Source: Saccharofermentanales bacterium
GTDB lineage: Bacteria; Bacillota; Clostridia; Saccharofermentanales; DTU023
Length of the DNA stretch: 64,000 nucleotides
Assembly: GCA_050945495.1 (NCBI GenBank)
Contig: JBMNTA010000005.1
Span: 19,290 to 83,289, forward strand
Direction of reading: 5' to 3'
Of the stretch, positions 1 to 22,665 are shown piece after piece (the first letter of the stretch is position 1; every line of letters begins with the position of its first letter). The notes under the pieces are model-generated. The model ran no database searches, was not told the DNA's origin, and worked only from the letters and a program-made list of their open reading frames with translations. Both the position numbers and the translations under genes were made by a program.

Positions 1-630
1 GGGAGCGCGATCATCACCATCGCACCCATTGCGCTTGCCACGATGATGGAGCACGTCGGCGATATCTCCGCGATCTCCGCCACCGTCGGCAAAAACTTCA
101 TGAGCGATCCGGGCCTCCACCGCACCCTGATGGGCGACGGCCTTGCCACGAGCTTGGCCTCGATCTTCGGTGGTCCCGCGAACACCACGTACGGTGAGAA
201 CACCGGCGTTCTCGCGCTGACGCGCGTCTACGCTCCGGGCGTTATTCGTGTCGCCGCGATCATCGCGGTCATCGCGAGCCTGTTCCCCGCCGTCGGTACC
301 TTCATCCTGACGATCCCCGCGCCCGCCATCGGCGGCGTGTCGTTCGTCCTGTACGGCATGATCTCCGCGATCGGTGTCCGCAACATGGTTGAAAACCACG
401 TTGACCTCACCAAAGCGCGCAACCTGATGATCACGTCGGTCATTCTCGTGTCCGGCCTCGGCATCAGCTTGAGCGGAACGGGCGGCATCCAGATTGGCAG
501 CGTTATGCTTTCCGGTCTCGCCGTTTCGGCGTTGCTCGGCATCATCCTGAATGCGATCCTGCCGGGGAAAGATTACACGTTCAAAGATCACGACGCTGAA
601 CCCGTTGCGGAACTGCCCTTGAAGGACTAA
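1..630 (+). CDS. NCS2 family uracil/xanthine permease (UraA/PyrP-like), 5'-truncated by window edge
   Basis: Frame open from base 1; motifs EHVGD and GGPANTTYGENTGV typical of UraA/PyrP; hydrophobic helices. Confidence 0.9.
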   Translation, partial: GSAIITIAPIALATMMEHVGDISAISATVGKNFMSDPGLHRTLMGDGLATSLASIFGGPANTTYGENTGVLALTRVYAPGVIRVAAIIAVIASLFPAVGTFILTIPAPAIGGVSFVLYGMISAIGVRNMVENHVDLTKARNLMITSVILVSGLGISLSGTGGIQIGSVMLSGLAVSALLGIILNAILPGKDYTFKDHDAEPVAELPLKD

Positions 631-673
631 TCGCACCATGACGTCGGCCTGATCGGCTGACGAACCACAAACA

Positions 674-703
674 AGAGGTGGCCGCTTCGGCGGCCACCTT
701 TTA
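674..703 (+). terminator. Intrinsic terminator after permease
   Basis: AGGTGGCCGC-TTCG-GCGGCCACCT followed by T-run. Confidence 0.85.
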
Positions 704-794
704 TGTTGTCAAAATGTGCCTTGGATTACTGCAGGAACGGAGTTTCGGGCGTATACTGTTAATTGTATTTTGAAATCAAATTTTAAAGGAGCGA

Positions 795-2483: not shown

Positions 2484-3281
2484 TTAGTCTTCGACGTCAA
2501 AGGCGACGCAGCGGCAGAACGCGGATTCACCGTATTGGAACTTCCAGGGGAACGTTCCGAGGATGAGGCGCTTGTTCAAGACCTTGTCGATCTCACCGCC
2601 GATGCACTCGGCGTGGATGCACTCCCAAGGTTTCGGGAACAGCCAGATATGCATGCACTGATAGGTGTCGGGCCATTTGTAAATTTCGTTCAGGCCTTTG
2701 CCGTATTTTTCACGCATGTAGGCGTCGCATTTTTCCGCTTCTTTCGGCTCCCAGTCACGAATCTTCGTGTTCATGGGGTGGTCCGCCGAACCGCAGTCAA
2801 CGGCGAGGTACTTGATTTCCATCTCTTTGCACCAGTCGGGGAAGTCCGTCGACGGGCCGGGGTGACGCAGCATGTAGCGGCGCTCGTCCGGTTCGGATCC
2901 TTCGGCCGAGTACTTATGGTAGCCGGTGTTGATGAAGAGGATATCGCCCTTCTTCACTTCGACGCGGTCCATGATGTCCTGCGGCGTGTAGATCGACCAG
3001 TCTTCCGCGATGTCGGAAAGGTCAACGACGACACCGGGGCCGACGAGTTTTTCGAGTTCGAGGGACGCGATGTCGCGGCCGCCCGTATCAAAGTGCATCG
3101 GGCCGTCCAAGTGCGTACCGACGTGGTTCGAGGTTTTGATGATCATGCCGTTCGCGCCGTTCGGGGCGAGACGTTTGAAGTATTGGACACCGAGGGGCTC
3201 GTAGGTCGGCCACGGGGGCGTCATGTGGTTGAGGTTCATCGTCAAGTCATACATCTTGACTTTGCTCCAGTCTTTGAACAT
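2484..3281 (-). CDS. Cyclase family metal-dependent amidohydrolase (kynurenine formamidase/isatin hydrolase fold)
   Basis: HVGTHLDGPMHF matches the HxGTHxDxPxH signature; start moved to ATG at 3281 behind GGAGG. Confidence 0.85.
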   Translation of the reverse strand: MFKDWSKVKMYDLTMNLNHMTPPWPTYEPLGVQYFKRLAPNGANGMIIKTSNHVGTHLDGPMHFDTGGRDIASLELEKLVGPGVVVDLSDIAEDWSIYTPQDIMDRVEVKKGDILFINTGYHKYSAEGSEPDERRYMLRHPGPSTDFPDWCKEMEIKYLAVDCGSADHPMNTKIRDWEPKEAEKCDAYMREKYGKGLNEIYKWPDTYQCMHIWLFPKPWECIHAECIGGEIDKVLNKRLILGTFPWKFQYGESAFCRCVAFDVED

Positions 3282-3372
3282 AAAATTGTTCCTCCCTTTC
3301 TGTGTGAGCATTAGTGTATCTATTGTACCCGCGTTGCCGCGGTGACATCCCTTTACGTATATTCTACACGAT

Positions 3373-4635
3373 TCATCCAAGCATGCCGTCCGCTTGCAAT
3401 TGCGCCGCGAACGCTTCCAACGCGTCCTCGAAGCACTTCATCGGCGGATGGACCACGCCCGCGCCGACTTGGCCGACGCCCGCGTGTTTGCTGGCAATAC
3501 CGGTGTTGATGACGGGCAGGATCTGCGTCTCGATGACGAGGCGAATATCGATGCCGGTCGGCGTGCCGCGGAAGTTCATGGGCGGCATCTTGTAGGCACC
3601 GCTCTCTTCCGTCGTGATTTCGTACATGGACGTCGTGTAGTTCACCGCGTCTTGCGGGGTACCGCCGACGAACTGAACGATGGCCGGAGCCGTCGCCATG
3701 GCGAAACCGCCGAGGCCGTAGGTCTCCGTGATGCACGAGTCGCCGATGTCCGGGTTGGCGTCGTCCATCGAGTAGCCCGGGAAATACAGGCCGTCGATGA
3801 TCTCGGCCGGCGCCGTGAACCATTTGTCTCCGCAGCCGGCGACGCGAATGCCGAACTCGGTGCCGTTGCGGCACATCGTGTAAACGATCGTCGAGTGCTT
3901 GATCTTGCCGACGGGATCCATCGAGGATTTGGCGGCCGGCATGGACATGTTCAAGAAGAAGTGGTCGTTCGAGTTCAAGAAGTCGAACACCTTGACTTTT
4001 TCTTCTTGCGGCGCATCGACCTTCAACAGACTCGACGCGATCTCACGGATGAACAGCGAGGTCGCCGCCTTGTTGCGGTTATGGACTTCGTCGCCCATCT
4101 GAACGGCTTGCGCGATCATGTTTTTCAGATCGATCGGGCCGTGAATTTCAATCGCTTCCTTCAGGATCGGATAGAGTTTTTCTTCCATCCATTTCAGGTG
4201 CTTCAGGACGTTCTCGTTGAACGCGCCGAAACGGAGCACTTCACCGAGGCCTTCGTTCATCGTGCAGAACGCGCGGTTGCCCTGCGACTTGTTCTCGACG
4301 ATGAAGACGGGCATCGACGCCGTGACGACACCGGCCATCGGCCCGACGGCCGCGTGGTGGTGGCACGGATCAAATTCGATCTCACCGGACTTGGCGAGTT
4401 CTTCCGCTTCTTCGAGGTCTTTGGCGAGGCCTTCATAGACCAAACCGCCGGTGACGGCGCCGCGCAGCGGTCCCGACATCTTGTCCCACGTAATCGGGGG
4501 ACCGGCGTGCAGGACGAGCTTTTTCTTCATGCCCGGGATCACGTCCCCGGCAATGCCCATGCCGACGAGCGTCGGCTGGGCGCTCTGCATGATTTCCAGT
4601 GCTTTTTTGTTGGCTTCATCAATAAAATTTGCCAT
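3373..4635 (-). CDS. YlbE/YahG (DUF1116; AllG-like) protein
   Basis: LHAGPP, PCHHHAAVGPMAG, MGDEVHNRN, RNGTEFGI, DIGDS, INTGI motifs; fdrA context. Confidence 0.88.
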   Translation of the reverse strand: MANFIDEANKKALEIMQSAQPTLVGMGIAGDVIPGMKKKLVLHAGPPITWDKMSGPLRGAVTGGLVYEGLAKDLEEAEELAKSGEIEFDPCHHHAAVGPMAGVVTASMPVFIVENKSQGNRAFCTMNEGLGEVLRFGAFNENVLKHLKWMEEKLYPILKEAIEIHGPIDLKNMIAQAVQMGDEVHNRNKAATSLFIREIASSLLKVDAPQEEKVKVFDFLNSNDHFFLNMSMPAAKSSMDPVGKIKHSTIVYTMCRNGTEFGIRVAGCGDKWFTAPAEIIDGLYFPGYSMDDANPDIGDSCITETYGLGGFAMATAPAIVQFVGGTPQDAVNYTTSMYEITTEESGAYKMPPMNFRGTPTGIDIRLVIETQILPVINTGIASKHAGVGQVGAGVVHPPMKCFEDALEAFAAQLQADGMLG

Positions 4636-4657
4636 GGTTGTTCTCTCTTTCTTTCAA

Positions 4658-4834
4658 TTATTTGGTGCCTCTGAGCATCCCAAGGAGCGAGGCCATCTTC
4701 TTGTTGCCGCCGGCCGCAGGTTTCCAATCCACATGGATGGCCGGAACGTCTTGGCTTTTGAGATCGTCATAAAACGACTCGAGGCCCATATTGACGATTT
4801 TCAGGTCTTGTTTAAATAAATCTTTGACTGCCAT
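4658..4834 (-). CDS. 58-aa protein matching the C-terminal segment of FdrA/YahF (absent from ORF track)
   Basis: MAVKDLFKQDLKIVNMGLESFYDDLKSQDVPAIHVDWKPAAGGNKKMASLLGMLRGTK; RBS AAGGAGG; fills the gap between fdrA and ylbE. Confidence 0.8.
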   Translation of the reverse strand: MAVKDLFKQDLKIVNMGLESFYDDLKSQDVPAIHVDWKPAAGGNKKMASLLGMLRGTK

Positions 4835-4849
4835 GGTGTTCCTCCTTCC

Positions 4850-6403
4850 CTACGCTTCCAGGCGTTGCATCATCAGGTCGACGAGACGAACGGCTTGCGC
4901 GTTCGAGGGCATCACGATGATGCCGACCGCTTCAAGCGATTCGACCGATTTGTCGAGGTCTTGCGGGTCTTTGTCCGTGCCCGTGATCGAGGCGACGGCG
5001 ATGATGTCTTTGCCCTCTTTCGCCAGGCGTTCGCGAATCTCGGTCACCGATTCGGCGACGGCGCCGGCGGGATCCACATAGGAGCCGTAGCCGAGCACGA
5101 CGTCCACCAAGATGATGGCCGATTGATCGTCGACGTGCGATTTGAAGAATTCGGTCCGCGTCATGGGATCAATCATCGGGTGCGGGCGACCCTGCGTGAA
5201 CTCGTCTTCGCCGAGGTCGTAGCAGATGTGGCCGTTGAGACCGTCGAGGTGTTCAAAGCCGCGATCGGGCGTCAAGGGAATGTTCGAATAAACGGGGCGT
5301 GCTTCGCCCAAATATTTGATCGCTTCGTCGGCCAGCGTGCCGCCGGTAAACAGCGCTCTCAAATATTTTTGATCCGGTTTCAATTTGGCGAGCGCTTCAT
5401 CAATGATGGCGTTGATCTCGTCGTCGGATTGGTCAAATCCGTCAAAGTCGACGGGTTTTTCGCCGCGCAACAACGCGACGGCTTTCCGCGCCGCGTCTTC
5501 GAGGCTCACGCACGCCGTGGCGCCCGCGTCTTCGATCGCCTTCGCGTCACCGCCGATAAAGTCGATGACCACGGGCTTGTCGCAACGGGCGACGATGTCG
5601 TAGATCTTCTTTTCAACCGAGGGGGCCGGCGGTTTCGAAATCAACACGATGACTTCGGTTTCGGGGTCTTCGATCAATGCCTCGAACCCGGTGATCATCA
5701 TCAGGCCGCCGATGTCGTCCTTGAGGTCGCGGCCGCCGGTGCCGATGACTTGCGAGAGGCCTTCGCCGAGCTGATCGACGCGAACGGTCACTTCCTGCGT
5801 GCCCGTTCCCGACGCGCCGACGACGCCGATCTTGCCGCGTTTCACCACGTTGGCGAAACAGAGCGGAACGCCGTTGATGATCGCGGTACCGCAGTCGGGA
5901 CCCATCATCAAGAGGCCTTTTTCCACGGCCATCTTCTTGAGCCGAAGCTCATCTTCCACCGTCACGTTGTCCGAGAACAGCATCACGTTCAGGCCTTGTT
6001 GCAAGGCGCCTTCCGCTTCTTCCGCGGCATAGCGGCCGGGCACCGAAATGGTCACCAGATTGGCACCTTCCAGGTGTTCGAGCGCGGAGTGCAATGTCGG
6101 CGGGCGGTAGTCTCCCGACGACGCTTCTTTTTTGCTGTTAATCTGTTCGTCAAACGATTGGATGAGTTCGTCCATCGTGACTTTCGATTCGTCGAACTTG
6201 GCGGCGATGAACAAATCGTTCGGCGTCACGCCTTCCAGTTCCGGCGGGAACATATCGAGTTTTTTCACCAAATCGATGTTAAGCTCTGTCCCCATGCCGA
6301 CGAGTACTTCCTCGACGCCATCCATGGATTTCATTTCGCGTGAAATGAGCATCAGGGTAACGGAGTCGTAGTACGCGTTTTCTCTTACCAGTGTTTGAAT
6401 CAT
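4850..6403 (-). CDS. fdrA: FdrA/YahF (AllF-like) acyl-CoA synthetase-fold protein
   Basis: YYDSVTLM, FSDNV, MMGPDCGTA, GASGTG, GTGGRDL, GRPHPMIDP motifs. Confidence 0.9.
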   Translation of the reverse strand: MIQTLVRENAYYDSVTLMLISREMKSMDGVEEVLVGMGTELNIDLVKKLDMFPPELEGVTPNDLFIAAKFDESKVTMDELIQSFDEQINSKKEASSGDYRPPTLHSALEHLEGANLVTISVPGRYAAEEAEGALQQGLNVMLFSDNVTVEDELRLKKMAVEKGLLMMGPDCGTAIINGVPLCFANVVKRGKIGVVGASGTGTQEVTVRVDQLGEGLSQVIGTGGRDLKDDIGGLMMITGFEALIEDPETEVIVLISKPPAPSVEKKIYDIVARCDKPVVIDFIGGDAKAIEDAGATACVSLEDAARKAVALLRGEKPVDFDGFDQSDDEINAIIDEALAKLKPDQKYLRALFTGGTLADEAIKYLGEARPVYSNIPLTPDRGFEHLDGLNGHICYDLGEDEFTQGRPHPMIDPMTRTEFFKSHVDDQSAIILVDVVLGYGSYVDPAGAVAESVTEIRERLAKEGKDIIAVASITGTDKDPQDLDKSVESLEAVGIIVMPSNAQAVRLVDLMMQRLEA

Positions 6404-6478
6404 GTCCGTATCACTCCTTACTTTAAGTTACTTGTTTATCACAATGGACGCGGTTGCTACCTCATCGCGTCCAAATGG

Positions 6479-7441
6479 TCACTTCGAAGACGCCATGTCT
6501 TGGGGCACGGCGTTGTCCAACAGCATGGTCTGTGCGCGGTAGAGACCATACATAAAGTCGCCGCCGGACGTCGCACCGATGGCGAGGGCACGTTCGCCGA
6601 CACGCGCCAATTTCTTGACGTCGCCCGTGGCGACGGCGTGCACAAGTTGAATGTACGCATCGCTCGCCTTGCCTTCCGCCGCATGCCTGAGCATGTGGTA
6701 ACTGACGAGCGTCGTCGCGCCCTTGGCGTAGGCCGCGATGGAACGCAGGAAGCGATCGATCGTATCGTGGCGGGTGCCCGTGCGCACGTACATGTCGTAC
6801 AAGCTGAGCATCACGCCCGCCAAAAAATCATCGCAAGACGGCGTGAGCCCCGGGCCGAACCCGATGAGGCGACGTGAGCACTCCAAGGCCTTCACGTAGT
6901 CGTCTTCGCCCAGCGCGGTCATGAACGCTTCCAGATCGCCGCCGATGAAAGAACAATACATGTTCGGCGCGCGTCCCGAGGACGTCGCCGAATCGTCGGA
7001 ACACGCAATCAACGGGGCGACCCCGCCGTTTTCCGGCTTGATCGCGCGGAGACGTTCACGGATCCATGCGAGCGACGCCCGACGCTGTGCGGCGGTCGTC
7101 GGCGGATGATCGCGCAGCGCGGGATCCCAGACGCGCGCATTGAACAAATCAATGGTCACACCGGTTCGGCGAATGGTCAGCGCCATGTCGCCGCCGTAAT
7201 CGACGACATCGTCCACATGAATGTAGGACGCCGGTTTCGGCTTTTCCTCGATCACGAGCCCCATGGGCATGATGTCGCGATCCGACGAGGCGATCGTGAT
7301 GAACGTCTCGTCTTCGGCGATCAAATTGACCGATGTGCGAAACACGGAGTGCACGTCAAAGCTCATCGCGCCGCGCGTCAAAAGCGTCCGACGCAAATCG
7401 GAGGCAATGATGCACGCATGTCCCCGAGGATCCGCGTTCAT
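6479..7441 (-). CDS. DUF2877 protein (YlbF/AllH-like)
   Basis: HSVF, LIGFGPGLTPSCDDFLAG, TTLVS, IGATSGGD motifs. Confidence 0.85.
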   Translation of the reverse strand: MNADPRGHACIIASDLRRTLLTRGAMSFDVHSVFRTSVNLIAEDETFITIASSDRDIMPMGLVIEEKPKPASYIHVDDVVDYGGDMALTIRRTGVTIDLFNARVWDPALRDHPPTTAAQRRASLAWIRERLRAIKPENGGVAPLIACSDDSATSSGRAPNMYCSFIGGDLEAFMTALGEDDYVKALECSRRLIGFGPGLTPSCDDFLAGVMLSLYDMYVRTGTRHDTIDRFLRSIAAYAKGATTLVSYHMLRHAAEGKASDAYIQLVHAVATGDVKKLARVGERALAIGATSGGDFMYGLYRAQTMLLDNAVPQDMASSK

Positions 7442-9123
7442 TGGATCAGTTCCTTAATCTTCAAGGCGAGTTGCAAATTAAACGCCGTTTCGGGATCGCG
7501 CAGATCGATGCCGTACATGTCGCGGATGCGATTGATCCGATAGATGACGGTATTGTAGTGCGTAAACATGATCTCCGAAACGCGCTTTAAGTTGCCGCCG
7601 GCTTCAAAATAGACGCGCACGGTATCGAGCAAGTCGCCGCGCTGCGTACTGTCGTGGGCTTCCAAATCGGCGAGCACTTCGTTCGCGTAGGCCAAGGCGT
7701 CGTCACGCAACAGCGGGTGTCCGAGCACGCGCAAAAGGCCGAGATCGTCGTAATGCAAGACCGATTGTTCGGTGTCGCCGCGACTCTGCAGAATGCGCAC
7801 GGCCTGCTCCGCCTGCTGCAAACTCGCCTGCAGTTGGCGATGCGACTCGACGCACGATCCGACGCCGATGTGCGGCACCGGCAGCGTCTCCGCCTGCTGC
7901 GTGTTGCGCAACAAAATGTTGATGAATCGCTGGCACATGGCACCGCGCTCTTCCGCCGTGGAATTTTTCTCATATTGCAAGAGGAAGATCGCGCGATCGC
8001 TCTTGCGCGTCGACAAGAAATAACCTCCGTATTCCTGGCGGAGGCGATTGGTCAAATTCAACAACCCGGTATTGAGGTTCTTGATCATGCGCGCGTTGTT
8101 CGGCGTCATCTGCAGGCGGCTGCCCTTGTCTTCCACGTCGAGCACCACGATCTGACTCGGTTTTTCCGGATGGTAGAGGTAATAATCGGCATTCTCGATG
8201 GCGCGGTCTTGCTCCGCGGCATCGTCGCTCAGCAATTGCTCCAAAAACGTCGTCTGATGGACGTTTTCGCGTTCGACGAGCGTGATGCGATTTAAAATGT
8301 CGAGGGCGATCAGGGACGAGGCCGATTCGATCACAAACAAATCCTGCGAACGGATCGATTCCTTGGTATCCCATATATAGATGCTGCCGTAGTGCGTGTT
8401 GTCAAAGAAAATCGGAATCGTGAAGCGGTGAATGCCGTGTTCGCCGACGCGCGCTTCGCGACGACGATCGCCCAGAAACATGTGGGTGGTCTGCGGCTCC
8501 ATCTTCGCGATCTCGCGATAGTCGTCGGCAATCAACGCCTCCGCGTCGGGGTCGGGACAATAGAGGTACACGTCACGGAAAATATCGTCGCGGATCACCA
8601 CGGGCGCGTCGAGCGCCAGGTAGATCTGCTCGGCGACGGCCTGCATGCCGCCGTGACGCAACATGATGTCGCGGACCGTGCTGTTGAAGTCGTTGATGCG
8701 GCTCAACAAGCGTGTTTGTTCGCCGATGATGTGGTTGAATATTTCCTTGATGAGGTCGCCGTACTGCACGCTCTGCGGAATGCGAATGATCGGGAAATCA
8801 ATTTCGTCGGCCACGCGCAGCACCCGTTCGGGCACTTCGCTGATGTACCGCTGCGTCTTGATGCCCATGCCGCACACGCGCTTCGCTTTCAGCTTGGGAA
8901 TGAGCGCTTCAAACATCTCAATATCGTCGCTGAACGTGTAGGCGGTGGTCAAAAGAAATTCGCCGGGACGCACCCAGTCGATGATGTCGGGCACTTCCAT
9001 GACGTTGACGGACACGATGCTGTTCGACAGCCCGCGTTCCCCCGCCAGCACCTCGGCATCTTGGAGCAAATCGACATTGAGGATGTCGCGTAGTTGAATT
9101 TTTAACTGATTGCGATCGGTCAC
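7438..9123 (-). CDS. PucR/CdaR family transcriptional regulator
   Basis: N-terminal VLAGERGL..VNVMEVPD..GEFLLTT PucR domain; C-terminal HTH HYNTVIYRINRI. Confidence 0.92.
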   Translation of the reverse strand: MTDRNQLKIQLRDILNVDLLQDAEVLAGERGLSNSIVSVNVMEVPDIIDWVRPGEFLLTTAYTFSDDIEMFEALIPKLKAKRVCGMGIKTQRYISEVPERVLRVADEIDFPIIRIPQSVQYGDLIKEIFNHIIGEQTRLLSRINDFNSTVRDIMLRHGGMQAVAEQIYLALDAPVVIRDDIFRDVYLYCPDPDAEALIADDYREIAKMEPQTTHMFLGDRRREARVGEHGIHRFTIPIFFDNTHYGSIYIWDTKESIRSQDLFVIESASSLIALDILNRITLVERENVHQTTFLEQLLSDDAAEQDRAIENADYYLYHPEKPSQIVVLDVEDKGSRLQMTPNNARMIKNLNTGLLNLTNRLRQEYGGYFLSTRKSDRAIFLLQYEKNSTAEERGAMCQRFINILLRNTQQAETLPVPHIGVGSCVESHRQLQASLQQAEQAVRILQSRGDTEQSVLHYDDLGLLRVLGHPLLRDDALAYANEVLADLEAHDSTQRGDLLDTVRVYFEAGGNLKRVSEIMFTHYNTVIYRINRIRDMYGIDLRDPETAFNLQLALKIKELIQ

Positions 9124-10424: not shown

Positions 10425-10436
10425 GAGGCCAAGCGT

Positions 10437-13393: not shown

Positions 13394-13441
13394 ACACACG
13401 GCTTGACGCTCGCGTTTCGTCGCGAGCATCTCCGATGATCC

Positions 13442-13476
13442 TGTCCGCGACGGCCTGACCGTCGCGGACATTTTTT
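13442..13476 (+). terminator. Intrinsic terminator of xdh-type operon
   Basis: TGTCCGCGACGG-CCTGA-CCGTCGCGGACA-TTTTTT. Confidence 0.88.
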
Positions 13477-13498
13477 ATGCGAAAATATTCTGAGATCG

Positions 13499-15000: not shown

Positions 15001-15027
15001 GCGACCATTGTCTTCGGAAACACGTCG

Positions 15028-15060
15028 ATTGTCAACCGTAATTACAGACAGGTTGACGTT
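15028..15060. promoter_or_regulatory. Putative BirA operator (bioO)
   Basis: GTCAACC-N13-GGTTGAC palindrome 30 bp upstream of birA, resembling the known TGTtAAC-N14/16-GTTaACA BirA consensus. Confidence 0.75.
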
Positions 15061-15090
15061 CAACGTTCCCCGCCGCTTTGGTGTATTCTT

Positions 15091-16020
15091 ATGAGTGTCA
15101 TCATGCGGAAGGAGCCTCAAAGATCCATGACCTTTCATCAGCTCAATGTCTTTCGTTGCGTCGTCGAAATGGGGGGTGTCAGCCGCGCCTCGGACCACCT
15201 CGACATTCCGCAGCCGGCCGCGACGCGTGCCATTCGCGCCTTGGAAGAAGAGTTCGGGCTCGAACTCTTCGATCGCAGCGGCAATCGCATGGTCGTCAAC
15301 GAGAGCGGTCAACTGCTCTATGACTTCACGACGCGTCTGTTTCGCATGAAGGCCAAACTCGAGACGGCGATGGAGGCCCGCCGTCAACACGACGACACGG
15401 TCATCTCGATCGTGGTCGAAGCGGCGTCGTCGCGCTTACCGCAAATCTGCACGGCCTTCAGCGAACGCCACCCCGATGCGACGTTTCGCCTGTTGCATCA
15501 GCCGGCGGCCGTGCGCTGGGAGGCCAAGGACTATCATTTGCGCCTCCATTCGACGCGCGAACGCCCCACGGGCGACCACCTCTACGTCTTGGCCGACGAA
15601 GCCATCAAGCTGGCCGTTCAGAGCGACGGGCCGTTCGGCGATCGGACGAGCGTGAAGCTTGCCGAAGTGAAAGACATGGGCTTTGTGAGTTTGTTTCGCA
15701 CGCACGGGTTGCGCCAAATCACCAACGCGTACTGCGCCATTGCGGGCTTTCAGCCGAAAATCATTTTCGAAACCGACAACACGACGACGGTCTTTCGCTA
15801 CGTCAACGCAGGGCACGGCATCGCGTTTATCCCCGATCTGACGTGGCCCAAACAGCGCGAAGGCGATGAGCAAGTGCATCTCATCGCCATCACGGAGCCG
15901 GTATGCCGGCGTTACATCAATTTAAGCACGCTCGAACCGAGTGATCTCACCCGGTACGAGCGGCTCTTTGTCGATTTTTTAATCGAATCGTTTCAAACGA
16001 TCCAAGCACACAACGCTTAA
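15091..16020 (+). CDS. LysR family transcriptional regulator
   Basis: SRASDHLDIPQPAATRAIRALEEEFGLELFDR HTH; true start may be the Met at about 15127. Confidence 0.9.
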   Translation: MSVIMRKEPQRSMTFHQLNVFRCVVEMGGVSRASDHLDIPQPAATRAIRALEEEFGLELFDRSGNRMVVNESGQLLYDFTTRLFRMKAKLETAMEARRQHDDTVISIVVEAASSRLPQICTAFSERHPDATFRLLHQPAAVRWEAKDYHLRLHSTRERPTGDHLYVLADEAIKLAVQSDGPFGDRTSVKLAEVKDMGFVSLFRTHGLRQITNAYCAIAGFQPKIIFETDNTTTVFRYVNAGHGIAFIPDLTWPKQREGDEQVHLIAITEPVCRRYINLSTLEPSDLTRYERLFVDFLIESFQTIQAHNA

Positions 16021-17498
16021 TCGAGCGCCGGTGCGGACACGGGCGGCCGACGATCGTGCGTCGCCTGTTCGAAGGCGTACGCGATCTCGATCAGGACGGG
16101 CTCGCTGAACGGACGTCCGATGATCTCCAGCCCCACGGGCACGCCGATCGGCGCCTCGGGACTCGGGGCAAATCCGGCCGGCACGGCGATGGACGGGAAG
16201 CCCGTCGACGAGCACAGGACGCCGTTGCGTCCGTTTTGGCTGCCGCCGATCTCGCACACCAACTGTTGCTGGTGCGGATAGACAAACGCGTCCAGGTCGT
16301 GGTCGGCCATGAGCTTCAAGATCTTCGTCTTGAACGCTTCTTGACGCATGCGCTTTTCGTTGTAGCGCGGCGTGCCGATGTCGAGCTTCTTCGCCGTCAA
16401 CATGTTCTCTTCGATGCCCGGATGGTACAGGCCGCTCTCGAGGATGTCGTCCATCGAGTGCACCTTCGCTTCCGGACCGAGCGTTTCGAGGTAACCGTTC
16501 AAGTGCGTCTTGAAGTCATCCAAGTGGACGCTCACTTCCGAAATCATCCACGCGGAATCGAGCTCCTCGTCGATGTCGATCAGGGTGGCGCCGTTCGCTT
16601 CGAAGGCCTTCAACGCTTCGTCCATGACATCGTTCACCGGTTGGTGAATCGCTTTTTTGCCGAAGAACGAGCGCAAGACGCCGATGCGTTTGCCCTCGAG
16701 CCCGTCGCGGCGCAAGTGCTCGGTGTAGTGCGTCGTGTCCTGCCCGTACGCCCACGCGGTCTCATCGTCGTCGGGGTCGTACCCCGCGATGACCTCCAGC
16801 GTGCGAACGCAATCTTCCACGGTGCGGCAAATGGGGCCGGCCGTATCTTGCGTCAAGCTGTACGGCACGATGCCGGCGCGTGAGACGAGGCCCACGGTCG
16901 GACGAATGCCCGCGAGCGAGCACGCCGATGCGGGACTCCGCACCGAGTTGATCGTGTCGGTGCCGATGCCGATGATGCCGATGTTGCAGGCAATCGCGGC
17001 GCCGGTGCCGCCCGACGAACCGCCGGGGGTCCGGGTCGGATCGTACGGGTTCACCGTCTGGCCGAGCATCGAGCTGATCGTCTCGCCCCAGATCGCGAAC
17101 TCGTGCAGGTTCGTCTTCGCCAGGATCAGGGCCCCGGCCTCACGCAAGCGCTTCGTGATGAACGCGTCGTGATCCGGCACGTAGCCTTCGAGCGATTTCG
17201 AACCGGCCGTCGTCGGCATATCGTACGTGTTGACGTTGTCTTTCAACATCACGGGAATCCCGTGCAAGGGTCCCGAAAGGCTCCCCGAGCGCTTCAAAAG
17301 ATCGTCCAAGCGGTCCGCCTCTTCGAGCGCTTTGGGGTTGACCAAGATGATCGCGTTGATCGCGGGCCCTTGGTCTTCGAATGCGTCGATGCGCTTCAGG
17401 TACGCCTCGACGAGCTCGCGGCACGTCAGTTGTCCGTCGAGCATCGCGCGATGCACCTTGGCGATCGTCGTTTCCATCAATTCAAAAGATTGTGACAT
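16017..17498 (-). CDS. Amidase-signature family amidase (possible malonamidase)
   Basis: GPLHGIPVMLKDN, GGSSGG, GTDTINSVRSPAS carry the Lys/cis-Ser/Ser triad; last gene of mdcA operon. Confidence 0.9.
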   Translation of the reverse strand: MSQSFELMETTIAKVHRAMLDGQLTCRELVEAYLKRIDAFEDQGPAINAIILVNPKALEEADRLDDLLKRSGSLSGPLHGIPVMLKDNVNTYDMPTTAGSKSLEGYVPDHDAFITKRLREAGALILAKTNLHEFAIWGETISSMLGQTVNPYDPTRTPGGSSGGTGAAIACNIGIIGIGTDTINSVRSPASACSLAGIRPTVGLVSRAGIVPYSLTQDTAGPICRTVEDCVRTLEVIAGYDPDDDETAWAYGQDTTHYTEHLRRDGLEGKRIGVLRSFFGKKAIHQPVNDVMDEALKAFEANGATLIDIDEELDSAWMISEVSVHLDDFKTHLNGYLETLGPEAKVHSMDDILESGLYHPGIEENMLTAKKLDIGTPRYNEKRMRQEAFKTKILKLMADHDLDAFVYPHQQQLVCEIGGSQNGRNGVLCSSTGFPSIAVPAGFAPSPEAPIGVPVGLEIIGRPFSEPVLIEIAYAFEQATHDRRPPVSAPALD

Positions 17499-17515
17499 TT
17501 ACCTGCTCCCTCCGT

Positions 17516-18679
17516 TTAGCCAAAGAAGCTCAAAAGCAAGCCCGCGGCGACCGCCGATCCGATGACGCCGGCCACGTTCGGGCCCATGGCGTGCATCAAC
17601 AGGAAGTTCGACGGGTTGTACTTCTGCCCTTCTTTTTGGACGACGCGCGCGGCCATCGGGACGGCCGACACACCGGCGGCGCCGATCAACGGATTGATCT
17701 TGCCCTTCGTGAAGAAGCACATGAGCTTGCCGAACAAGACGCCGAAGGCCGTGCCGATCGCAAAGGCCAAGAGGCCCAAGACGATGATCTTGATCGTCCC
17801 GGTCGTCAAGAATGTCTCCGCGGTCGCGGTCGCGCCGACGGTGACGCCCAGGAAAATCGAGACGATGTACATCAAGGAATCTTGGATGGCTTTCACCATC
17901 AACGGGACACGTCCCGATTCTTTCAGCAAGTTACCGAGCATCAGCATGCCGATCAACGCGCCGGCCGACGGCAGCAGCAACACGGTGAAGAGCGTCACGA
18001 CGATCGGGAACAAGACTTTTTCGTGCTTGCTCACGGGGCGCAACTGCTCCATCTTGATCTCGCGTTCCTTCTTGGTCGTCAGGGCTTTCATGATGGGCGG
18101 TTGAATGATCGGTACCAGCGCCATGTATGAGTAGGCCGCAATGGCGATCGGTCCCAACAGATAGGGCGCCAGCCGACTCGTCAAAAACAAGGCGGTCGGT
18201 CCGTCGGCGCCGCCGATGATGCCGATCGAGGCCGCTTCGGGGCCCGTGAAGCCCAAGGCGATCGCACCGATGAAGGTGATAAAAATGCCGATCTGTGCCG
18301 CGGCCCCCAAAAGCAGGCTGCGCGGGTTCGCGATCAGCGGACCGAAGTCCGTCGACGCCCCGATGCACAGGAAGATCAGCGGCGGATAAATCCCCATGGC
18401 GGTGCCTTGGTAGAGGTAGTACAGAAGGCCGCCCGGCTGCGTGCCGAGGGGACCGTCCATCAACCCCGCCAACGGCAAGTTGACGAGCAACATACCGAAC
18501 GCGATGGGAATCAATAAGTACGGTTCGTAATCCTTCTTGACGCCCAAGTAGATGAACAGACAGGCGATCACGATCATGATCAGCCGGCCCGGCACCATCA
18601 CGCCGAACAGCTCCGTATCGAGCGAAAACAGTTCGGCGAACCCGGACGTCTTGAAGAAATCAATTAAGACTTCCCACAT
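17516..18679 (-). CDS. Na+-translocating decarboxylase beta subunit (MmdB/OadB)
   Basis: IGIIGGADGPT, AAYSYMALVP, GVSAVPMAARV, MHAMGPNVAGVIGS. Confidence 0.95.
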   Translation of the reverse strand: MWEVLIDFFKTSGFAELFSLDTELFGVMVPGRLIMIVIACLFIYLGVKKDYEPYLLIPIAFGMLLVNLPLAGLMDGPLGTQPGGLLYYLYQGTAMGIYPPLIFLCIGASTDFGPLIANPRSLLLGAAAQIGIFITFIGAIALGFTGPEAASIGIIGGADGPTALFLTSRLAPYLLGPIAIAAYSYMALVPIIQPPIMKALTTKKEREIKMEQLRPVSKHEKVLFPIVVTLFTVLLLPSAGALIGMLMLGNLLKESGRVPLMVKAIQDSLMYIVSIFLGVTVGATATAETFLTTGTIKIIVLGLLAFAIGTAFGVLFGKLMCFFTKGKINPLIGAAGVSAVPMAARVVQKEGQKYNPSNFLLMHAMGPNVAGVIGSAVAAGLLLSFFG

Positions 18680-18691
18680 GTGACGGCTCCT

Positions 18692-19078
18692 CTACTTGAA
18701 CGAGACGAGCGTCGTTCCGGCGCTGACGACATCCCCTTTGTTGACATGGACTTTGTCGACGACGCCGTCGGTGGGCGCCACGATCTCGTTTTCCATCTTC
18801 ATGGCTTCGATGACAAGGAGCAAATCGCCGGCTTTGACCGTCTGCCCGGGCTCCGCCGCGATCGAGAGGATCGTGCCCTGCAAGGGCGCGGTGACGCCGC
18901 CGCCCACGGGCGCGGGTGCGGGTGCGGGGGCCGGAGCGGCCTTGGGGGCCGGGGCCGCCTTCGGGGCGGGCGCGGCTTTCGGTGCGGGACGCGCCGAGGG
19001 CGCGTCGGCCTTCACTTCTTCGACTTCAACAAAATGTTCAACGCCGTCAATGACGATGCGAAATGATTTCATGGACAT
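18692..19078 (-). CDS. Biotin carboxyl carrier subunit (MmdC-like)
   Basis: EAMKM biotinylation motif; Pro/Ala linker with APKAAP repeats. Confidence 0.95.
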
Positions 19079-19096: not shown

Positions 19097-19453
19097 TTAT
19101 GAACGCTGGAGCGAGTCTTCGATGCTCGACGCTTCCCAGCCGGTTAAAGGCGCGCCGCGGCGCTCCACTTTTCGAATGATCAGTTGCGTATCCTCGTCCG
19201 CGTACGCCGCCAGGGCCGCCGCGATGATGGCCACGGTTTCGGCACTCACGCCGTCCTCGACCGCGGGCGCCGGCGGGGGCGCCTGGTCGTTCGCGACCTC
19301 GTCCTTTTCGCGCTTGTTCGCTTTGCGCTTCGCGGCGACGGCCACCAGGTCGATCAAATACGAGATGACCAAGAGGACCAAAAAGACGATGACGATCGAA
19401 AACAACGACAGCAAAAACGCTTGCCAGGCCGTAATGTTGGCAAAATCAAACAT
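19097..19453 (-). CDS. OadG/MmdD family decarboxylase anchor subunit
   Basis: N-terminal TM IVIVFLVLLVI, VAIIAAALAAY, C-terminal Trp motif. Confidence 0.85.
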   Translation of the reverse strand: MFDFANITAWQAFLLSLFSIVIVFLVLLVISYLIDLVAVAAKRKANKREKDEVANDQAPPPAPAVEDGVSAETVAIIAAALAAYADEDTQLIIRKVERRGAPLTGWEASSIEDSLQRS

Positions 19454-19462
19454 GGCAACCCC

Positions 19463-21010
19463 CTAGAGCGGCATGTTACCGTGTTTCTTCGCCGGAAGCC
19501 CCGCACGTTTCGTGCGCAGCGTCTCAAACGAAGAGATCAGGCGCTGACGCGTCTCCTCGGGCACGATGACGTCGTCCAGGTAGCCGCGCGATGCCGCATA
19601 GTACGGGTTCATCATGGCCTCCTGGTAATCGGCGATGCGCTCTTGGCGCTTGGCCGCGGGATCTTCGGCGTTGCGAATCTCACGCGAGAAGATGATGTTC
19701 GCCGCACCCTCGGCCCCCATGACCGCGATCTCCGCCTCGGGCCAACCGAGGACGATGTCGCCGCCCAAATGCTTGGAGCACATCCCAATGTACGCGCCGC
19801 CGTAGGCTTTGCGCACAATCAAGGTCACCTTCGGCACGGTCGCTTCGCTGTAAGCGAAGAGCATTTTCGCGCCGTGGCGGATGATGCCGCCGTACTCCTG
19901 TTGCGTGCCGGGCAGGAAGCCGGGCACGTCGACCAGCGTCAGCAACGGAATGTTGAACGCGTCGCACGTGCGAATGAAGCGCGAGGCCTTGTCGGACGCA
20001 TTGATGTCGAGGCAACCGGCCATGGCGCGCGGTTGGTTCGCAATGACGCCGATGCTCTGGCCGTTCAGGCGCATGAAGCCCGTGAGGATGTTGGGCGCGT
20101 ACAGCTCCTGAACCTCGAAGAAGTCGCCGCCGTCGGCGATGGCGTAAATCAAATCGCGCATGTCGTACGGCTTGCTCGGGTCTTCGGGAATCAGTTCGTT
20201 CAAGTCCTCCAACAGCGCGTTGGGGTCTTCCGCCGGCTCATAGACTTCGGGCTTTTCGCGGTTGTTTTGCGGCAAATAGCTCAAGAGCTTGCGGATTTGT
20301 TCCAGACACGCCGCTTCATCGGGCGCGCGGAAATGCGCGACGCCGCTCGTCTGGTTGTGCGTGTAGGAACCGCCCAATGCCTGGGCCGAAACTTCTTCGC
20401 CCGTGACCGCACGGATGACGTTTGGTCCGGTGATGAACATTTCGCTGGTGTCGTCGACCATGAAGATGAAGTCCATCAGGGCCGGCGAATAGACGGCGCC
20501 GCCGGCGCACGGTCCCATGATCACGGAGATCTGGGGGATGACGCCCGACGCCATCGTGTTGTTGTAGAAAATACGGCCGTAACCCGCGAGGGAGTCGACG
20601 CCCTCTTGGATGCGGGCGCCGCCCGAGTCGTTGATGCAGATCATCGGGCAACCGAGTTTCAGGGCCAAATTCTGTGTCGCGACGATTTTGTCCGCGTGCA
20701 TCTCGCCGAGCGAGCCGCCGACCACGGTGAAGTCCTGCGCCGAAACGCACACCGTGCGACCGTCGATCGTGCCGTAACCGGTCACGACGCCGTCGCCCGG
20801 CGCCTCTTTCGTGTCCATCCCGAACTGGGTGGAACGATGTTTGACGAACCCACCCGTCTCGACAAAGCTTTTGTCATCGAGCAATGCCTCGATGCGTTCG
20901 CGCGCCGTCATTTTGCCGCGCTCATGCTGGCGTTCGATGCGCCGCTCGCCGCCGCCCAACCGCAATTGGGCTTTGCGTTCGAGCAATTGTTCATGAATAT
21001 CCTTACGCAA
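19463..21010 (-). CDS. Acyl-CoA carboxyltransferase (methylmalonyl-CoA decarboxylase alpha, MmdA-like)
   Basis: GKMTARERI, DSGGARIQEG, GPCAGGAVYSPA, DVPGFLPG, KKHGNMPL. Confidence 0.93.
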   Translation of the reverse strand: MRKDIHEQLLERKAQLRLGGGERRIERQHERGKMTARERIEALLDDKSFVETGGFVKHRSTQFGMDTKEAPGDGVVTGYGTIDGRTVCVSAQDFTVVGGSLGEMHADKIVATQNLALKLGCPMICINDSGGARIQEGVDSLAGYGRIFYNNTMASGVIPQISVIMGPCAGGAVYSPALMDFIFMVDDTSEMFITGPNVIRAVTGEEVSAQALGGSYTHNQTSGVAHFRAPDEAACLEQIRKLLSYLPQNNREKPEVYEPAEDPNALLEDLNELIPEDPSKPYDMRDLIYAIADGGDFFEVQELYAPNILTGFMRLNGQSIGVIANQPRAMAGCLDINASDKASRFIRTCDAFNIPLLTLVDVPGFLPGTQQEYGGIIRHGAKMLFAYSEATVPKVTLIVRKAYGGAYIGMCSKHLGGDIVLGWPEAEIAVMGAEGAANIIFSREIRNAEDPAAKRQERIADYQEAMMNPYYAASRGYLDDVIVPEETRQRLISSFETLRTKRAGLPAKKHGNMPL

Positions 21011-21030
21011 AGGTCTGTCCTCCTTCTCGA

Positions 21031-22665
21031 TTACTTACGGAAACTTTCGGGAATCTCGTACAAGCCGCCGGAGATCTCGACAAGTTCGTCGAGCGATTGA
21101 ACCGCCAAACGATCGTGCGTGGCCGTCGCGGGATCGATGCCGAGATCTTCGGGCAACGCGACCTTGCCGGCCTTACGCAGCTGTTCGAGTTTCGCCTTGT
21201 TGGTGTATTCGCCGATCGGCGTGTCTTGCGCGACCGCGCCGAGGATTTGTGTCTTCTCTTCGTCGCTTTCGGCCATGTACAGGTACGCGATGCCTTGCTC
21301 CGTCACCACGTGCGTGACGTCTTCGCTGTAGATCATGATCGGCGGCGCGTCCAATCCCGCGTCGCGACCGATCTTGATGGCATCGAGTTCCGGTTTGATG
21401 TTGTAGCCGTAGCGGCCTTGGCTGCGCAGCATTTGAACGACCAGTTTCTTGCCGGGGATCAACGAACGTCCCGTGGTCGAACGCGTGCTGAGGTACGCGG
21501 GCGTCGTGTGACGACGGCCCAAGGTGTTGTGCCCCATGTTCGGCGCACCGCCGAAGCCGGAGAGGCGTCCGCTCGTGACGGTCGACGAGTTGCCGAGGTA
21601 GTCAAGCTGCAGCGTGCCGCCCAAGAACAGGTCGATGCCGTAGAGGCCGGCGAGCTGCGCATAGGCGCGGTTGGAGCGGAGCGACCCATCCGATCCTATC
21701 GTGAAGATGTCCGGACGTGCTTCCGTGTAACGCTGCATGCCGGTTTCGCCGCCGAACGCGTAGATCGAATCGACCCAGCCGTGTTCGATCGCGGGGATCA
21801 TCGTGGGATGCGGGTTCAACACCCAGTGACGACAGATCTTGCCCTTGAGTCCCAGCTCTTCGCCGTACGTGGGCAGCAAGAGCTCAATGGCCGCGGCATT
21901 GTAGCCGATGCCGTGGTTCAAGGTCGTGACGCCGTGCTTCGCGTAAATGCCCTTGATGGTCATCATGCCCATCAAGATATGGTGATCGCGGATCTTCTTC
22001 GGATCGCGCGTAAAGAGCGCTTCCATCGGGTACGGTTCGTCGGCCTTGACGATCAAGTCGATCCAACCGCCGGGGATGTCGACGCGCGGGAGCTCCTCCG
22101 TCGGCACGATCTCGTTCACTTGCGCGATGACGATGCCGTCCTTGAAGGCCGCCGATTCGACGATGATCGGCGTCTCTTCCGTGCTGAAGCCCGTGTAGAG
22201 GTTGCCGTCCGCGTCGGCTTTGTCGGCCGCCACGAGGCACACGTCCGGGATCAAGTCCACAAACAGCCGTGCGTACAGCTCCAAATACGTGTGGATGGAA
22301 CCGATCTTCAATTTGTGTTCTTCGAGCATCTTCGACAGGCGAACGCTCTGCACGCCCGCGAAGGCGAAGTTGATTTCTTCCGCAATGCCCTTTTCAAAAA
22401 TATCCAAATGCGCATCGCGGGAAATCGACGGAATGATCATCGTCAATCCGTTGATCTTTTGAGGATCGACCTCGGCCAGAGCACTCGACAAAAACGTCGC
22501 TTGTTTCTGGTTGTCGCCCTCAAGCACCACCCGATCGTTCGGTTGCAAAATCGCCTCCAACGCCGGCACGATCGACGCGGTCTCGATGACCTTGCCGTCG
22601 ACCCAAGACGCCGCGCGTTCCAAACGTTTCGCTTTTCGATCACGCCTACCTTGCCAATTCATCAT
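21031..22665 (-). CDS. mdcA: Malonate decarboxylase alpha subunit (ACP/CoA transferase)
   Basis: LEGDNQKQA, IHTYLELYARLF, LNPHPT, GFGGAPNMG, DVTHVVTEQGIAYL; start at 22665 behind AAGGAGG. Confidence 0.92.
   Translation of the reverse strand: MMNWQGRRDRKAKRLERAASWVDGKVIETASIVPALEAILQPNDRVVLEGDNQKQATFLSSALAEVDPQKINGLTMIIPSISRDAHLDIFEKGIAEEINFAFAGVQSVRLSKMLEEHKLKIGSIHTYLELYARLFVDLIPDVCLVAADKADADGNLYTGFSTEETPIIVESAAFKDGIVIAQVNEIVPTEELPRVDIPGGWIDLIVKADEPYPMEALFTRDPKKIRDHHILMGMMTIKGIYAKHGVTTLNHGIGYNAAAIELLLPTYGEELGLKGKICRHWVLNPHPTMIPAIEHGWVDSIYAFGGETGMQRYTEARPDIFTIGSDGSLRSNRAYAQLAGLYGIDLFLGGTLQLDYLGNSSTVTSGRLSGFGGAPNMGHNTLGRRHTTPAYLSTRSTTGRSLIPGKKLVVQMLRSQGRYGYNIKPELDAIKIGRDAGLDAPPIMIYSEDVTHVVTEQGIAYLYMAESDEEKTQILGAVAQDTPIGEYTNKAKLEQLRKAGKVALPEDLGIDPATATHDRLAVQSLDELVEISGGLYEIPESFRK

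Follow-up and report, generated by a model that had tools for sequence, protein, structure and literature searches.

The window analysed here is the whole stretch of 64,000 bases that runs from 19290 to 83289 on contig C5 of the genome of an anaerobic-digester bacterium of the Saccharofermentanales (labelled G000 in what follows; 1.52 Mb in 78 contigs, estimated to be 93.6% complete). Its first part holds a catabolic cluster of about 23 kb, in which a permease, an Xdh-family molybdenum hydroxylase, a cyclase-family metal hydrolase and homologues of the Escherichia coli proteins FdrA, YlbE and YlbF lie beside an operon for MdcA, an amidase and a biotin-dependent decarboxylase. An earlier note on this DNA read these genes as a single pathway. 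We consider it reasonably probable, from gene content and from comparison with other genomes, that the 23 kb encode one oxygen-independent catabolic route for uracil-type pyrimidines, which would yield both ATP and a sodium gradient.

Genes in the window were named with Pfam and NCBIfam profiles and, since the G+C content is about 60%, coding frames were chosen by third-position G+C. All the genes named in the earlier note were recovered where it had placed them; it had overlooked one, for a nitroreductase. The left edge of the cluster is marked by a tRNA-Arg(CCT) gene (18029-18105 of locus L002), directly upstream of a gene for an NCS2 permease of 461 amino acids (Xan_ur_permease in Pfam). 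The latter is on the plus strand at G000:C5:18534-19919, starts 755 bases before the window and has its 3' part at positions 1-630. Downstream, on the same strand, is the gene of the nitroreductase-family flavoprotein (795-1331; PF00881, 57.6 bits). A string pucR-allH-fdrA-allG-cyclase-AEC is read from the minus strand. Its first gene encodes a PucR-family regulator with PucR, GGDEF_2 and HTH_30 domains (7438-9123), followed by homologues of AllH, or YlbF (6479-7441; PF11392, 83.2 bits), of FdrA, or AllF (4850-6403; NF004760, 496.4 bits over a cut-off of 433, with PF00549 and PF02629), and of AllG, or YlbE (3373-4635; PF06545, 341.8 bits): the three families of an AllFGH enzyme are encoded adjacent to one another, at 3373-7441. 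Then come the cyclase-family hydrolase (2484-3380; PF04199, 117 bits over 23.1), whose true start is probably at 3281 by comparison with its orthologues, and an AEC-family transporter (1426-2373; PF03547, 83.2 bits). The Xdh-family hydroxylase is encoded on the plus strand at 9582-13393 by three subunit genes assigned with Pfam: FAD (9582-10424), 2Fe-2S (10437-10982) and molybdenum (10979-13393).

The right half begins, on the minus strand, with genes for a BioY biotin transporter and a BirA biotin ligase/repressor (13499 to about 15000; PF02632, PF03099 and HTH_11; TIGR00121, 131.5 over 83.1), which would be serving the biotin-dependent decarboxylase. A LysR-family regulator (15091-16020, plus strand; HTH_1 and LysR_substrate) is convergent with the amidase gene, the last of the mdcA operon. 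This operon, on the minus strand, opens with mdcA at 21031-22665. The open reading frame (ORF) extends to 22701, and a ribosome-binding site probably places the start at 22665. After it come an MmdA-like carboxyltransferase of 515 amino acids (19463-21010; PF01039, 674 bits; mmdA model TIGR01117, 856, below its cut-off of 998.8), an OAD_gamma (gamma/delta) subunit (19097-19453; oadG_fam TIGR01195, 39.8 over 36.05), a biotin carrier with the EAMKM biotin motif at residue 92 (18692-19078; MmdC model, 121 bits, below its cut-off of 200), an OAD_beta decarboxylase beta subunit (17516-18679; TIGR01109, 478.8 over 190.6) and the amidase-signature hydrolase (16017-17498; PF01425, 326.8 bits). About 105 bases upstream of the likely mdcA start, a perfect palindrome of 16 bases (22771-22786) is a candidate LysR-type operator: it matches once in the window and not at all in 100 shuffles. 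The cluster ends at about 22.7 kb, to the right of which unrelated genes are found, for a hydrolase, a MATE pump and ribosomal proteins.

This stretch occurs in DNA sequencing runs from 12 studies. One run labelled RNA-Seq (X11) was set aside as evidence of expression: it is marked as probably DNA and its depth is flat, about 11 across all 20 kb, so that it says nothing on co-expression.

Recurrence of the module across genomes

A scan for the cyclase in one genome per species gave 83 relatives. The best 80 loci were taken, and 20 window proteins were compared with them by tblastn. Judged by their titles, 26 loci belong to Anaerolineaceae or other Chloroflexota, 53 to Clostridia-type Bacillota and one to a haloarchaeon. 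The cyclase is 62-86% identical to the window protein in 79 of them, very high for hosts so distant, and about 49% identical in the haloarchaeal locus. AllG is found in 73 loci, FdrA in 67, AllH in 65 and PucR, always at the same position, in 60; any Xdh subunit in 51, the permease in 31, the amidase in 19, the AEC carrier in five, and MdcA in none, many loci ending at a contig edge and the 10-kb flank being shorter than the distance to mdcA in the window. The recurring core is therefore PucR-AllH-FdrA-AllG-cyclase, to which an Xdh-type molybdoenzyme and an NCS2 permease are usually added.

Clustering the ORFs of the flanks brought out a protein that the window lacks: in 57 of the 80 loci, a protein of about 400 amino acids is encoded directly after the cyclase. 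It is a family-III coenzyme A (CoA)-transferase (PF02515, 444 bits) that attains no NCBIfam equivalog cut-off; its best solved relatives are YfdE (332 bits), succinate-hydroxymethylglutarate CoA-transferase (331) and formyl-CoA transferase (330). Other flanking genes are less frequent. Carbamate kinase forms a cluster in four loci (L036, L039, L048 and L073; the L036 member reaches 438.9 over 358.25 with TIGR00746), cytosine permease in five (L036 member, NF008241, 529.9 over 326), cytosine deaminase-like proteins in five (of three scored, the one in L040 reaches 540.7 over 483, and those in L008 and L081 stay below their cut-offs), and the nitrilase superfamily (CN_hydrolase) in eight. The molybdenum-cofactor genes XdhC, MobA, MoeA and YqeC are also present, and one further cluster (c12) has no match in Pfam.

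Three side observations concern the distribution of the module. The Chloroflexota copies (L008, L016-L035) are 72-82% identical to the window cyclase, AllG and Xdh molybdenum subunit; being as close as, or closer than, many Clostridia copies, they suggest a recent transfer between phyla in digesters. Genes for methyl-accepting chemotaxis proteins stand beside the module or the amidase in L039, L041 and L047 (cluster c52) and in L103 (4737-6269), which hints at chemotaxis towards the substrate. Beside its cyclase relative, the haloarchaeal locus (L081, Halostagnicola sp.) encodes two cytosine-deaminase-like proteins, an NCS1 permease and Xdh-like proteins, and has no AllFGH genes.

The proteins and the proposed route

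The route that we propose has eight steps, and its substrates, the order of amide hydrolysis and CoA transfer, and the electron acceptor of the molybdoenzyme are all inferred. The NCS2 permease would first take up uracil, or thymine. It passes the cut-off of TIGR00801 (342.8 over 291.8), scores 335 with the uracil permease model NF007995 (cut-off 477) against 200 with pbuX, and carries MEHVGD and GENTGVLALTR, which we take to be motifs of uracil-type NCS2 proteins. The permease-nitroreductase pair is kept in one of the 80 loci (L005, at 78% identity); the nitroreductase-family protein is possibly an electron outlet.

The Xdh-family molybdoenzyme would then hydroxylate C6 to give barbiturate, and is thus a proposed uracil/thymine dehydrogenase, although its substrate is not readable from the sequence. 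It attains no NCBIfam equivalog (the best, XdhA_XDHase, gives 465 for a cut-off of 780) and is 29% identical to E. coli XdhA. Among solved chains it comes nearest to 4-hydroxybenzoyl-CoA reductase (291 bits) and then to quinoline oxidoreductase (258), with bovine xanthine dehydrogenase at 172. An attempt to assign the substrate from an active-site residue was dropped: after GGGFGGK the window protein has Ser and E. coli XdhA has Gln, so the rule of a Glu at that position fails to separate bacterial Xdh enzymes. A second Xdh type, with a molybdenum subunit about 41% identical to that of the window, lies upstream of the permease in many Clostridia (L037, L038 and L043, for example), and locus L067 carries both types in one cluster. 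Genome G000 itself, at 1.5 Mb, holds five Xdh-family loci (contigs C64, C12, C4, C5 and C18) as well as two genes that score above the cut-off as D-hydantoinase type, and would seem to belong to a specialist in nucleobase fermentation.

In the third step the cyclase-family metal hydrolase would open the ring of barbiturate, the role of the unrelated classical barbiturase, and yield ureidomalonate. The protein carries HVGTHLDGPMH, an instance of the family metal motif HxGTHxDxPxH, and H53, H57, D59 and H63 are invariant among 28 orthologues. Its predicted structure (pLDDT, the predicted local distance difference test, 75.7; pTM, the predicted template modelling score, 0.79) has its best fold matches in Mn-dependent isatin hydrolases (TM-score 0.58, E 2e-10), enzymes that open a cyclic amide and offer a precedent for a ring-opening cyclase. 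It is not an orthologue of kynurenine formamidase: TIGR03035 gives 47.5 for a cut-off of 223, and the kynurenine formamidases of the PDB align with residues 42-125 only, at about 40 bits.

The AllFGH-like enzyme would next cleave this N-acylurea with phosphate, to carbamoyl phosphate and malonamate. According to PMC11326118, purified E. coli AllFGH forms oxalurate from oxamate and carbamoyl phosphate, the physiological direction being the reverse. Ureidomalonate is the one-carbon homologue of oxalurate, and the reaction may be taken as a precedent, by analogy with which the window proteins are proposed to be a carbamoyl-phosphate-forming enzyme acting on an N-acylurea. They are not close orthologues of the E. 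coli subunits in an allantoin setting: AllG is 45% identical to YlbE (and 65-84% to the AllG of other members of the module), FdrA is 37% identical to E. coli FdrA, AllH is 25% identical to YlbF, and no allD homologue was found in the genome by tblastn. Carbamate kinase would turn the carbamoyl phosphate into ATP. The earlier note had observed that the window has no such gene, which holds, and had asked whether the genome has one: it has a single copy, on contig C7, in an arginine deiminase-ornithine fermentation cluster, and in several other genomes the kinase gene lies inside the cluster studied here, which lends the proposed phosphate-dependent cleavage indirect support. The C7 region (L003, 2399-15263) encodes a V-type ATPase, then arginine deiminase, ornithine carbamoyltransferase and carbamate kinase, and then ornithine fermentation enzymes, namely diaminopentanoate dehydrogenase/OrtA, a pyridoxal-phosphate enzyme and ornithine aminomutase.

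The amidase-signature enzyme would release ammonia and malonate, malonamate or methylmalonamate being its proposed substrate. It has GGSSGG at residue 159, in keeping with the Ser-cisSer-Lys signature of the family. The earlier note had likened it to malonamidase E2, and this analogy gained no specific support: among the solved chains that match at E <= 1e-40 none is named malonamidase, no direct comparison with malonamidase E2 having been made.

MdcA would then move CoA from acetyl-CoA to malonate. The protein is 60% identical to Klebsiella MdcA and reaches the cut-off of the malonate-specific equivalog TIGR01110 (792.4 for 789.15), which makes it the best pointer found to malonate as the activated acid. 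In the last step the Mmd-type biotin decarboxylase would convert malonyl-CoA to acetyl-CoA and CO2 with export of Na+. The operon encodes what a Na+-translocating biotin decarboxylase comprises: a beta subunit, a carrier with the AMKM motif, a gamma/delta subunit and a carboxyltransferase. An Mmd-type enzyme is able to act on free malonyl-CoA. No match to an MdcC-type acyl carrier protein (TIGR03130) was found in G000 at its 93.6% completeness, and the sole CitX-CitG gene of the genome, about 32 kb from the mdcA operon, adjoins genes for glutamate mutase, methylaspartase and a CitE-like lyase. The CitG match in the window was accordingly rejected as a gene of a malonate system: it belongs to a CitX-CitG fusion beside glutamate-fermentation genes. 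Taken together, these two facts suggest that the decarboxylase probably uses free malonyl-CoA. The region in question, at 54531-63991, comprises the fusion (54531-55928), the CitE-like lyase (59695-60564), methylaspartate ammonia-lyase (60905-62146), glutamate mutase E (62201-63652) and MutL (63671-63991), that is, the methylaspartate route of glutamate fermentation.

Besides the malonamidase analogy, other points of the route as the earlier note gave it had to be revised. Carbamate kinase belongs to the cluster in several genomes. In its general form, the role of MdcA would be played in most other carriers by the family-III CoA-transferase, and that of the amidase sometimes by a nitrilase-superfamily amidase: MdcA would be a local substitute. 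The AEC protein, which had been compared with the malonate carrier MdcF, was also rejected as a malonate carrier, since it shows 26% identity over 108 residues to the AEC protein of the Klebsiella mdc operon and family membership is the sole support. Its gene follows the cyclase in five of the 80 loci, all from close relatives of the window organism, and occupies the slot held elsewhere by the CoA-transferase.

The same logic with different details is the best placed of the alternatives, if still unlikely. The substrate might be thymine, barbiturate or another 2,4-dioxopyrimidine; the CoA-transferase might act before the amidase, taking malonamate through malonamoyl-CoA to malonyl-CoA; or another protein than the cyclase might open the ring. 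A decarboxylase of methylmalonyl-CoA type would suit such variants, as would the operon of methylmalonyl-CoA mutase/epimerase type after the CoA-transferase in L066 and the presence of two different Xdh enzymes in some clusters, such as L067; and the tie of the CoA-transferase to the cyclase (57 of 80 loci) is tighter than that of the amidase (19). The malonate specificity of the MdcA equivalog speaks against them, and the data otherwise separate none of these variants from the route proposed.

Linkage of the two halves and nature of the substrate

If the two halves of the cluster form one pathway, they should be found together elsewhere, a comparison that the earlier note had put forward as its own refutation test. 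Fifty of the genomes behind the 80 loci were searched for MdcA, the amidase and the CoA-transferase. An orthologue of the amidase is present in 43 of them, 41 at 51-76% identity (488-865 bits) and two as split or truncated copies. Paralogues do not exceed 39% identity, except for a second copy at 46%, with an internal stop, in G040, which also has an orthologue at 55%. In Anaerolineaceae the amidase gene lies between Xdh and pucR, and it is inside the module in the 19 loci already counted. In G021 an unbroken string of 11 genes on the same strand reads amidase, Xdh FAD, FeS and Mo subunits, permease, PucR, AllH, FdrA, AllG, cyclase and CoA-transferase, and G024 has the same order. Six of the seven genomes lacking an amidase orthologue (G023, G028, G033, G034, G042 and G046) are exactly those with a CN_hydrolase after the cyclase; the seventh is the haloarchaeon. 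One or the other thus occurs in all but the archaeon, which indicates that amide hydrolysis is part of the module, performed by one or the other of two unrelated kinds of amidase.

MdcA and the CoA-transferase show a complementary replacement. Full-length MdcA is found in eight of the 50 genomes, all close relatives of the window organism (four further matches of 19-31 bits are noise). Each of the 41 bacterial genomes that lack MdcA has an orthologue of the CoA-transferase (at least 57% identity), and the nine that have MdcA, G000 among them, give no match to it at E <= 1e-40; the haloarchaeon has matches at 41-43% identity only. None of the 50 bacterial genomes has both and none has neither, and those without CoA-transferase have MdcA, with the AEC gene in the vacant slot.

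Several arrangements join the halves physically. G114, the only one of 12 genomes of its genus with either half, has both in one cluster: XdhC, then MmdA and MdcA on the minus strand, the Xdh FAD, FeS and Mo subunits, PucR, AllH, FdrA, AllG, cyclase, carbamate kinase and amidase. In two genomes of Tissierellales the CoA-transferase is combined with a decarboxylase of Mmd type. In G050, a Tissierella metagenome-assembled genome (MAG), the contig following the module encodes CoA-transferase, carbamate kinase, amidase, MmdA, a small subunit, MmdC and MmdB (the kinases of G114 and G050 were identified by BLAST to the L036 member). In G020 a second copy of the CoA-transferase is the first gene of an operon that goes on with MmdA, a small subunit, MmdC, MmdB and BirA, and which by its gene order is the mdcA operon of the window with the CoA-transferase replacing MdcA. 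A homologue of the beta subunit is encoded somewhere in 45 of the 50 genomes.

Closer to the window organism, the mdcA-mmd-amidase operon is kept in all six relatives examined, with LysR alongside in L096, L100 and L101. The stretches fetched for three of them hold a window-like Xdh, with all three subunits in L097 and L098 and the molybdenum subunit only in L096. Among 301 genomes of the order, MdcA (E <= 1e-50) occurs in 26 and the cyclase in 22: 21 have both, five MdcA only, one the cyclase only and 274 neither. Relatives are not independent, and no statistic is therefore drawn from these counts. Of the five genomes with MdcA only, G349, from another family, is of a conventional type, in which MdcA (57% identity) is followed by a distant carboxyltransferase and Mmd genes are missing. 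The other four (G089, G101, G054 and G057) are MAGs.

On another reading, two unrelated modules lie side by side by chance: one for an N-heterocycle, whose product would be exported by the AEC carrier, and a separate operon that ferments external malonate or malonamate through MdcA and Mmd. The four MAGs with MdcA-Mmd and no detected cyclase could be so explained, as could the division into separate operons with regulators of their own (PucR and LysR), the first of which ends with the AEC carrier; and anaerobic growth on malonate alone is known in Malonomonas rubra and Sporomusa malonica (PMC8085960). However, the completeness of these MAGs is 84-94%, and mdcA lies in them on short or cut contigs (L115-L117); the amidase of the malonate operon is orthologous to the one embedded in the cyclase-AllFGH-Xdh module of other phyla; in G114 it is MdcA-MmdA that adjoin Xdh, the amidase gene remaining with the AllFGH operon; and MdcA and the module's CoA-transferase exclude each other. 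Chance adjacency is, on this evidence, improbable, and ranks second among the alternatives. What the comparison shows is the gene content, the conserved linkage, the replacement of one gene by another and the family to which each protein belongs; the outcome favours the single pathway of the earlier note, in a richer form than expected.

As to the substrate, the formation of carbamoyl phosphate calls for a ureido group, and a transferase specific for malonate calls for a C3 diacid; a pyrimidine ring would answer to both. In some loci, neighbouring genes for cytosine permease and deaminase would provide the module with uracil. Two adjacent genes for inosine-uridine-preferring nucleoside hydrolases lie at 31233-33193 of the window, followed by four more minus-strand ORFs up to 36899; these hydrolases could supply free bases. 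Elsewhere in the genome, on contig C9 (13645-16296), a gene for a D-hydantoinase/dihydropyrimidinase (499.6 bits, over cut-off) adjoins one for an AllC-like M20 amidohydrolase (33% identical to E. coli AllC), a pair by which the organism may also have a reductive branch for pyrimidines or hydantoins. The AtzD/TrzD-type barbiturase model (TIGR02714) has no match in G000, but control genomes gave none either, so that absence is not shown.

On a further reading, the substrate of the module is a purine-derived ureide. It would degrade oxalurate, by way of oxamate and oxalate to oxalyl-CoA, as in the allantoin branch of E. coli, or 4-ureido-5-imidazolecarboxylate from xanthine, and the link to MdcA-Mmd in this family would be secondary. 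PucR regulators and Xdh enzymes typically go with purine catabolism, and xanthine amidohydrolase is reportedly metal-dependent. The best matches of the CoA-transferase include CoA:oxalate transferases (YfdE, at the 332 bits given above; NF008511, 358.7 for a cut-off of 522), and AllFGH is known only as an oxamate carbamoyltransferase (PMC11326118). On the other side, tblastn found no homologue of allD or allE in G000 and no allantoinase is over cut-off, which makes oxalurate from allantoin unlikely. A complete-looking reductive urate cluster exists on contig C12 (about 6300-17500, outside the window), where homologues of E. coli ygeW (64%), ygeY (67%), ygfK (41%), ssnA (31%) and hyuA (38%) stand next to an Xdh-family gene; it matches the reductive urate pathway described in PMC12507026, and purines would be served there. 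By its scores the permease is closer to the uracil type than to the xanthine type; cytosine genes flank some loci; and it is MdcA, a malonate enzyme, that replaces the CoA-transferase. No classical purine fermenter (Gottschalkia, Clostridium cylindrosporum) is named in the titles of the 80 loci, a weak point in a pattern-based search. We regard a purine ureide as the least probable of the three alternatives.

Several observations nevertheless weigh against a single pyrimidine route. Xdh is no nearer any enzyme of known substrate than the roughly 29% identity or 291 bits given above; the cyclase model falls below a pLDDT of 50 at residues 22-69, metal motif included, and supports the fold only; the amidase has its nearest solved relatives in peptide amidases (296 bits); the AEC carrier shows no specific likeness to MdcF; and the CoA-transferase, about equally like oxalate, glutarate and mesaconate CoA-transferases, fits an oxalate route alike. 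Cytosine genes flank just five of the 80 loci, a PreA-like flavoprotein in five loci (261 bits, below its cut-off of 335) hints at reductive chemistry nearby, and a possible overlap in families with the clostridial xanthinase cluster (Tong et al. 2023) could count in the same direction. Regulation differs, with PucR in the left half and LysR in the right, and a search for a shared operator between the pucR-xdh region and the mdcA upstream region (14-mers with at most two mismatches, in eight intergenic stretches) gave no convincing motif. MdcA with neighbouring Mmd genes is confined to one family (f1; 24 of 64 genomes besides G000), and since the nine MdcA genomes are one lineage, the exchange of MdcA and CoA-transferase was probably a single evolutionary event. 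Finally, 38 of the 41 CoA-transferase genomes have no Mmd gene beside the module, and the Mmd genes of L066 were rejected as clean support for linkage: they follow methylmalonyl-CoA mutase and MeaB, in an ordinary operon.

Setting these points against the linkage, we lean, if only slightly, towards a wider statement of the pyrimidine route: an ATP-yielding oxidative pyrimidine pathway, so far unrecognised, would be common to strict anaerobes that abound in digesters and sediments and belong to two phyla or more (Clostridia and Anaerolineae). It would include two new enzyme functions, a cyclase-family barbiturase unrelated to the known one and an AllFGH-type ureidomalonate phosphorylase that forms carbamoyl phosphate, and would end in Na+-coupled decarboxylation of malonyl-CoA; uracil or cytosine could then be an energy source by way of substrate-level phosphorylation as well as an ion gradient.

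Comparison with known systems

Pyrimidines are known to be degraded by the reductive, Rut, URC and aerobic oxidative routes, beside which an oxygen-independent oxidative route that conserves energy would be new. A literature search, in which subscription journals were thinly covered, returned no description of an anaerobic route through barbiturate, ureidomalonate or malonamate, nor of a role in pyrimidine breakdown for AllFGH homologues. If the proposal is true, the AllFGH family would acquire a second physiological role, functions would be assigned to a highly conserved cyclase-family protein and to a family-III CoA-transferase, and the nucleobase-based life of small-genome fermenters in digesters, sludge and landfills would be easier to explain. 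Several carriers of the module have been cultured, among them Fusibacter tunisiensis DSM 24436, Fusibacter sp. 3D3, Maledivibacter halophilus M1 and Acidaminobacter sp. JC074 (loci L078, L043, L040 and L038), so the idea is directly testable.

The aerobic oxidative pathway of Rhodococcus and Mycobacterium uses uracil/thymine dehydrogenase, barbiturase and ureidomalonase. The proposed route would share its intermediates (uracil, barbiturate, ureidomalonate and malonate) and the use of an Xdh-family hydroxylase in the first step. It would differ from it in several respects: the ring would be opened by a cyclase-family metal hydrolase and not by an AtzD/TrzD-type barbiturase; cleavage of the ureide would use phosphate and yield carbamoyl phosphate and malonamate, whereas there it is hydrolysed to urea and malonate; and the host is a strict anaerobe, in which malonate would be taken on to acetyl-CoA with export of Na+.

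For the decarboxylase, one known system is the methylmalonyl-CoA decarboxylase of Veillonella. Others are the biotin-dependent, Na+-pumping malonate decarboxylase of Malonomonas rubra and the malonate fermentation of Sporomusa malonica (PMC8085960), with which the window shares a transferase of MdcA/MadA type combined with a biotin carrier, a carboxyltransferase and an OAD_beta pump. In contrast to them, the window has a single MmdA-type carboxyltransferase of 515 amino acids and an amidase gene in the operon, and no MdcC/MadE-type carrier was found.

The reductive uric acid pathway with YgeW and YqeA, as PMC12507026 presents it, is also anaerobic, also begins with an Xdh homologue and also draws ATP from phosphorolysis of a ureido compound followed by carbamate kinase; unlike the route proposed here, it relies on the OTC-family YgeW and on reductive dearomatisation by YgfK, and its products are diaminopropionate and then pyruvate.

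A parallel for the central step is E. coli AllFGH with AllK (PMC11326118). The same three families are encoded next to one another in the window, and the carbamate kinase has its counterpart in the clusters of several carriers; both systems would serve the anaerobic recovery of ATP or nitrogen from an N-acylurea. The differences lie in the gene order, allH-allF-allG here, in the neighbours, which are Xdh, cyclase, CoA-transferase and amidase rather than allBCDE, and in the proposed substrate, which would be longer by one carbon.

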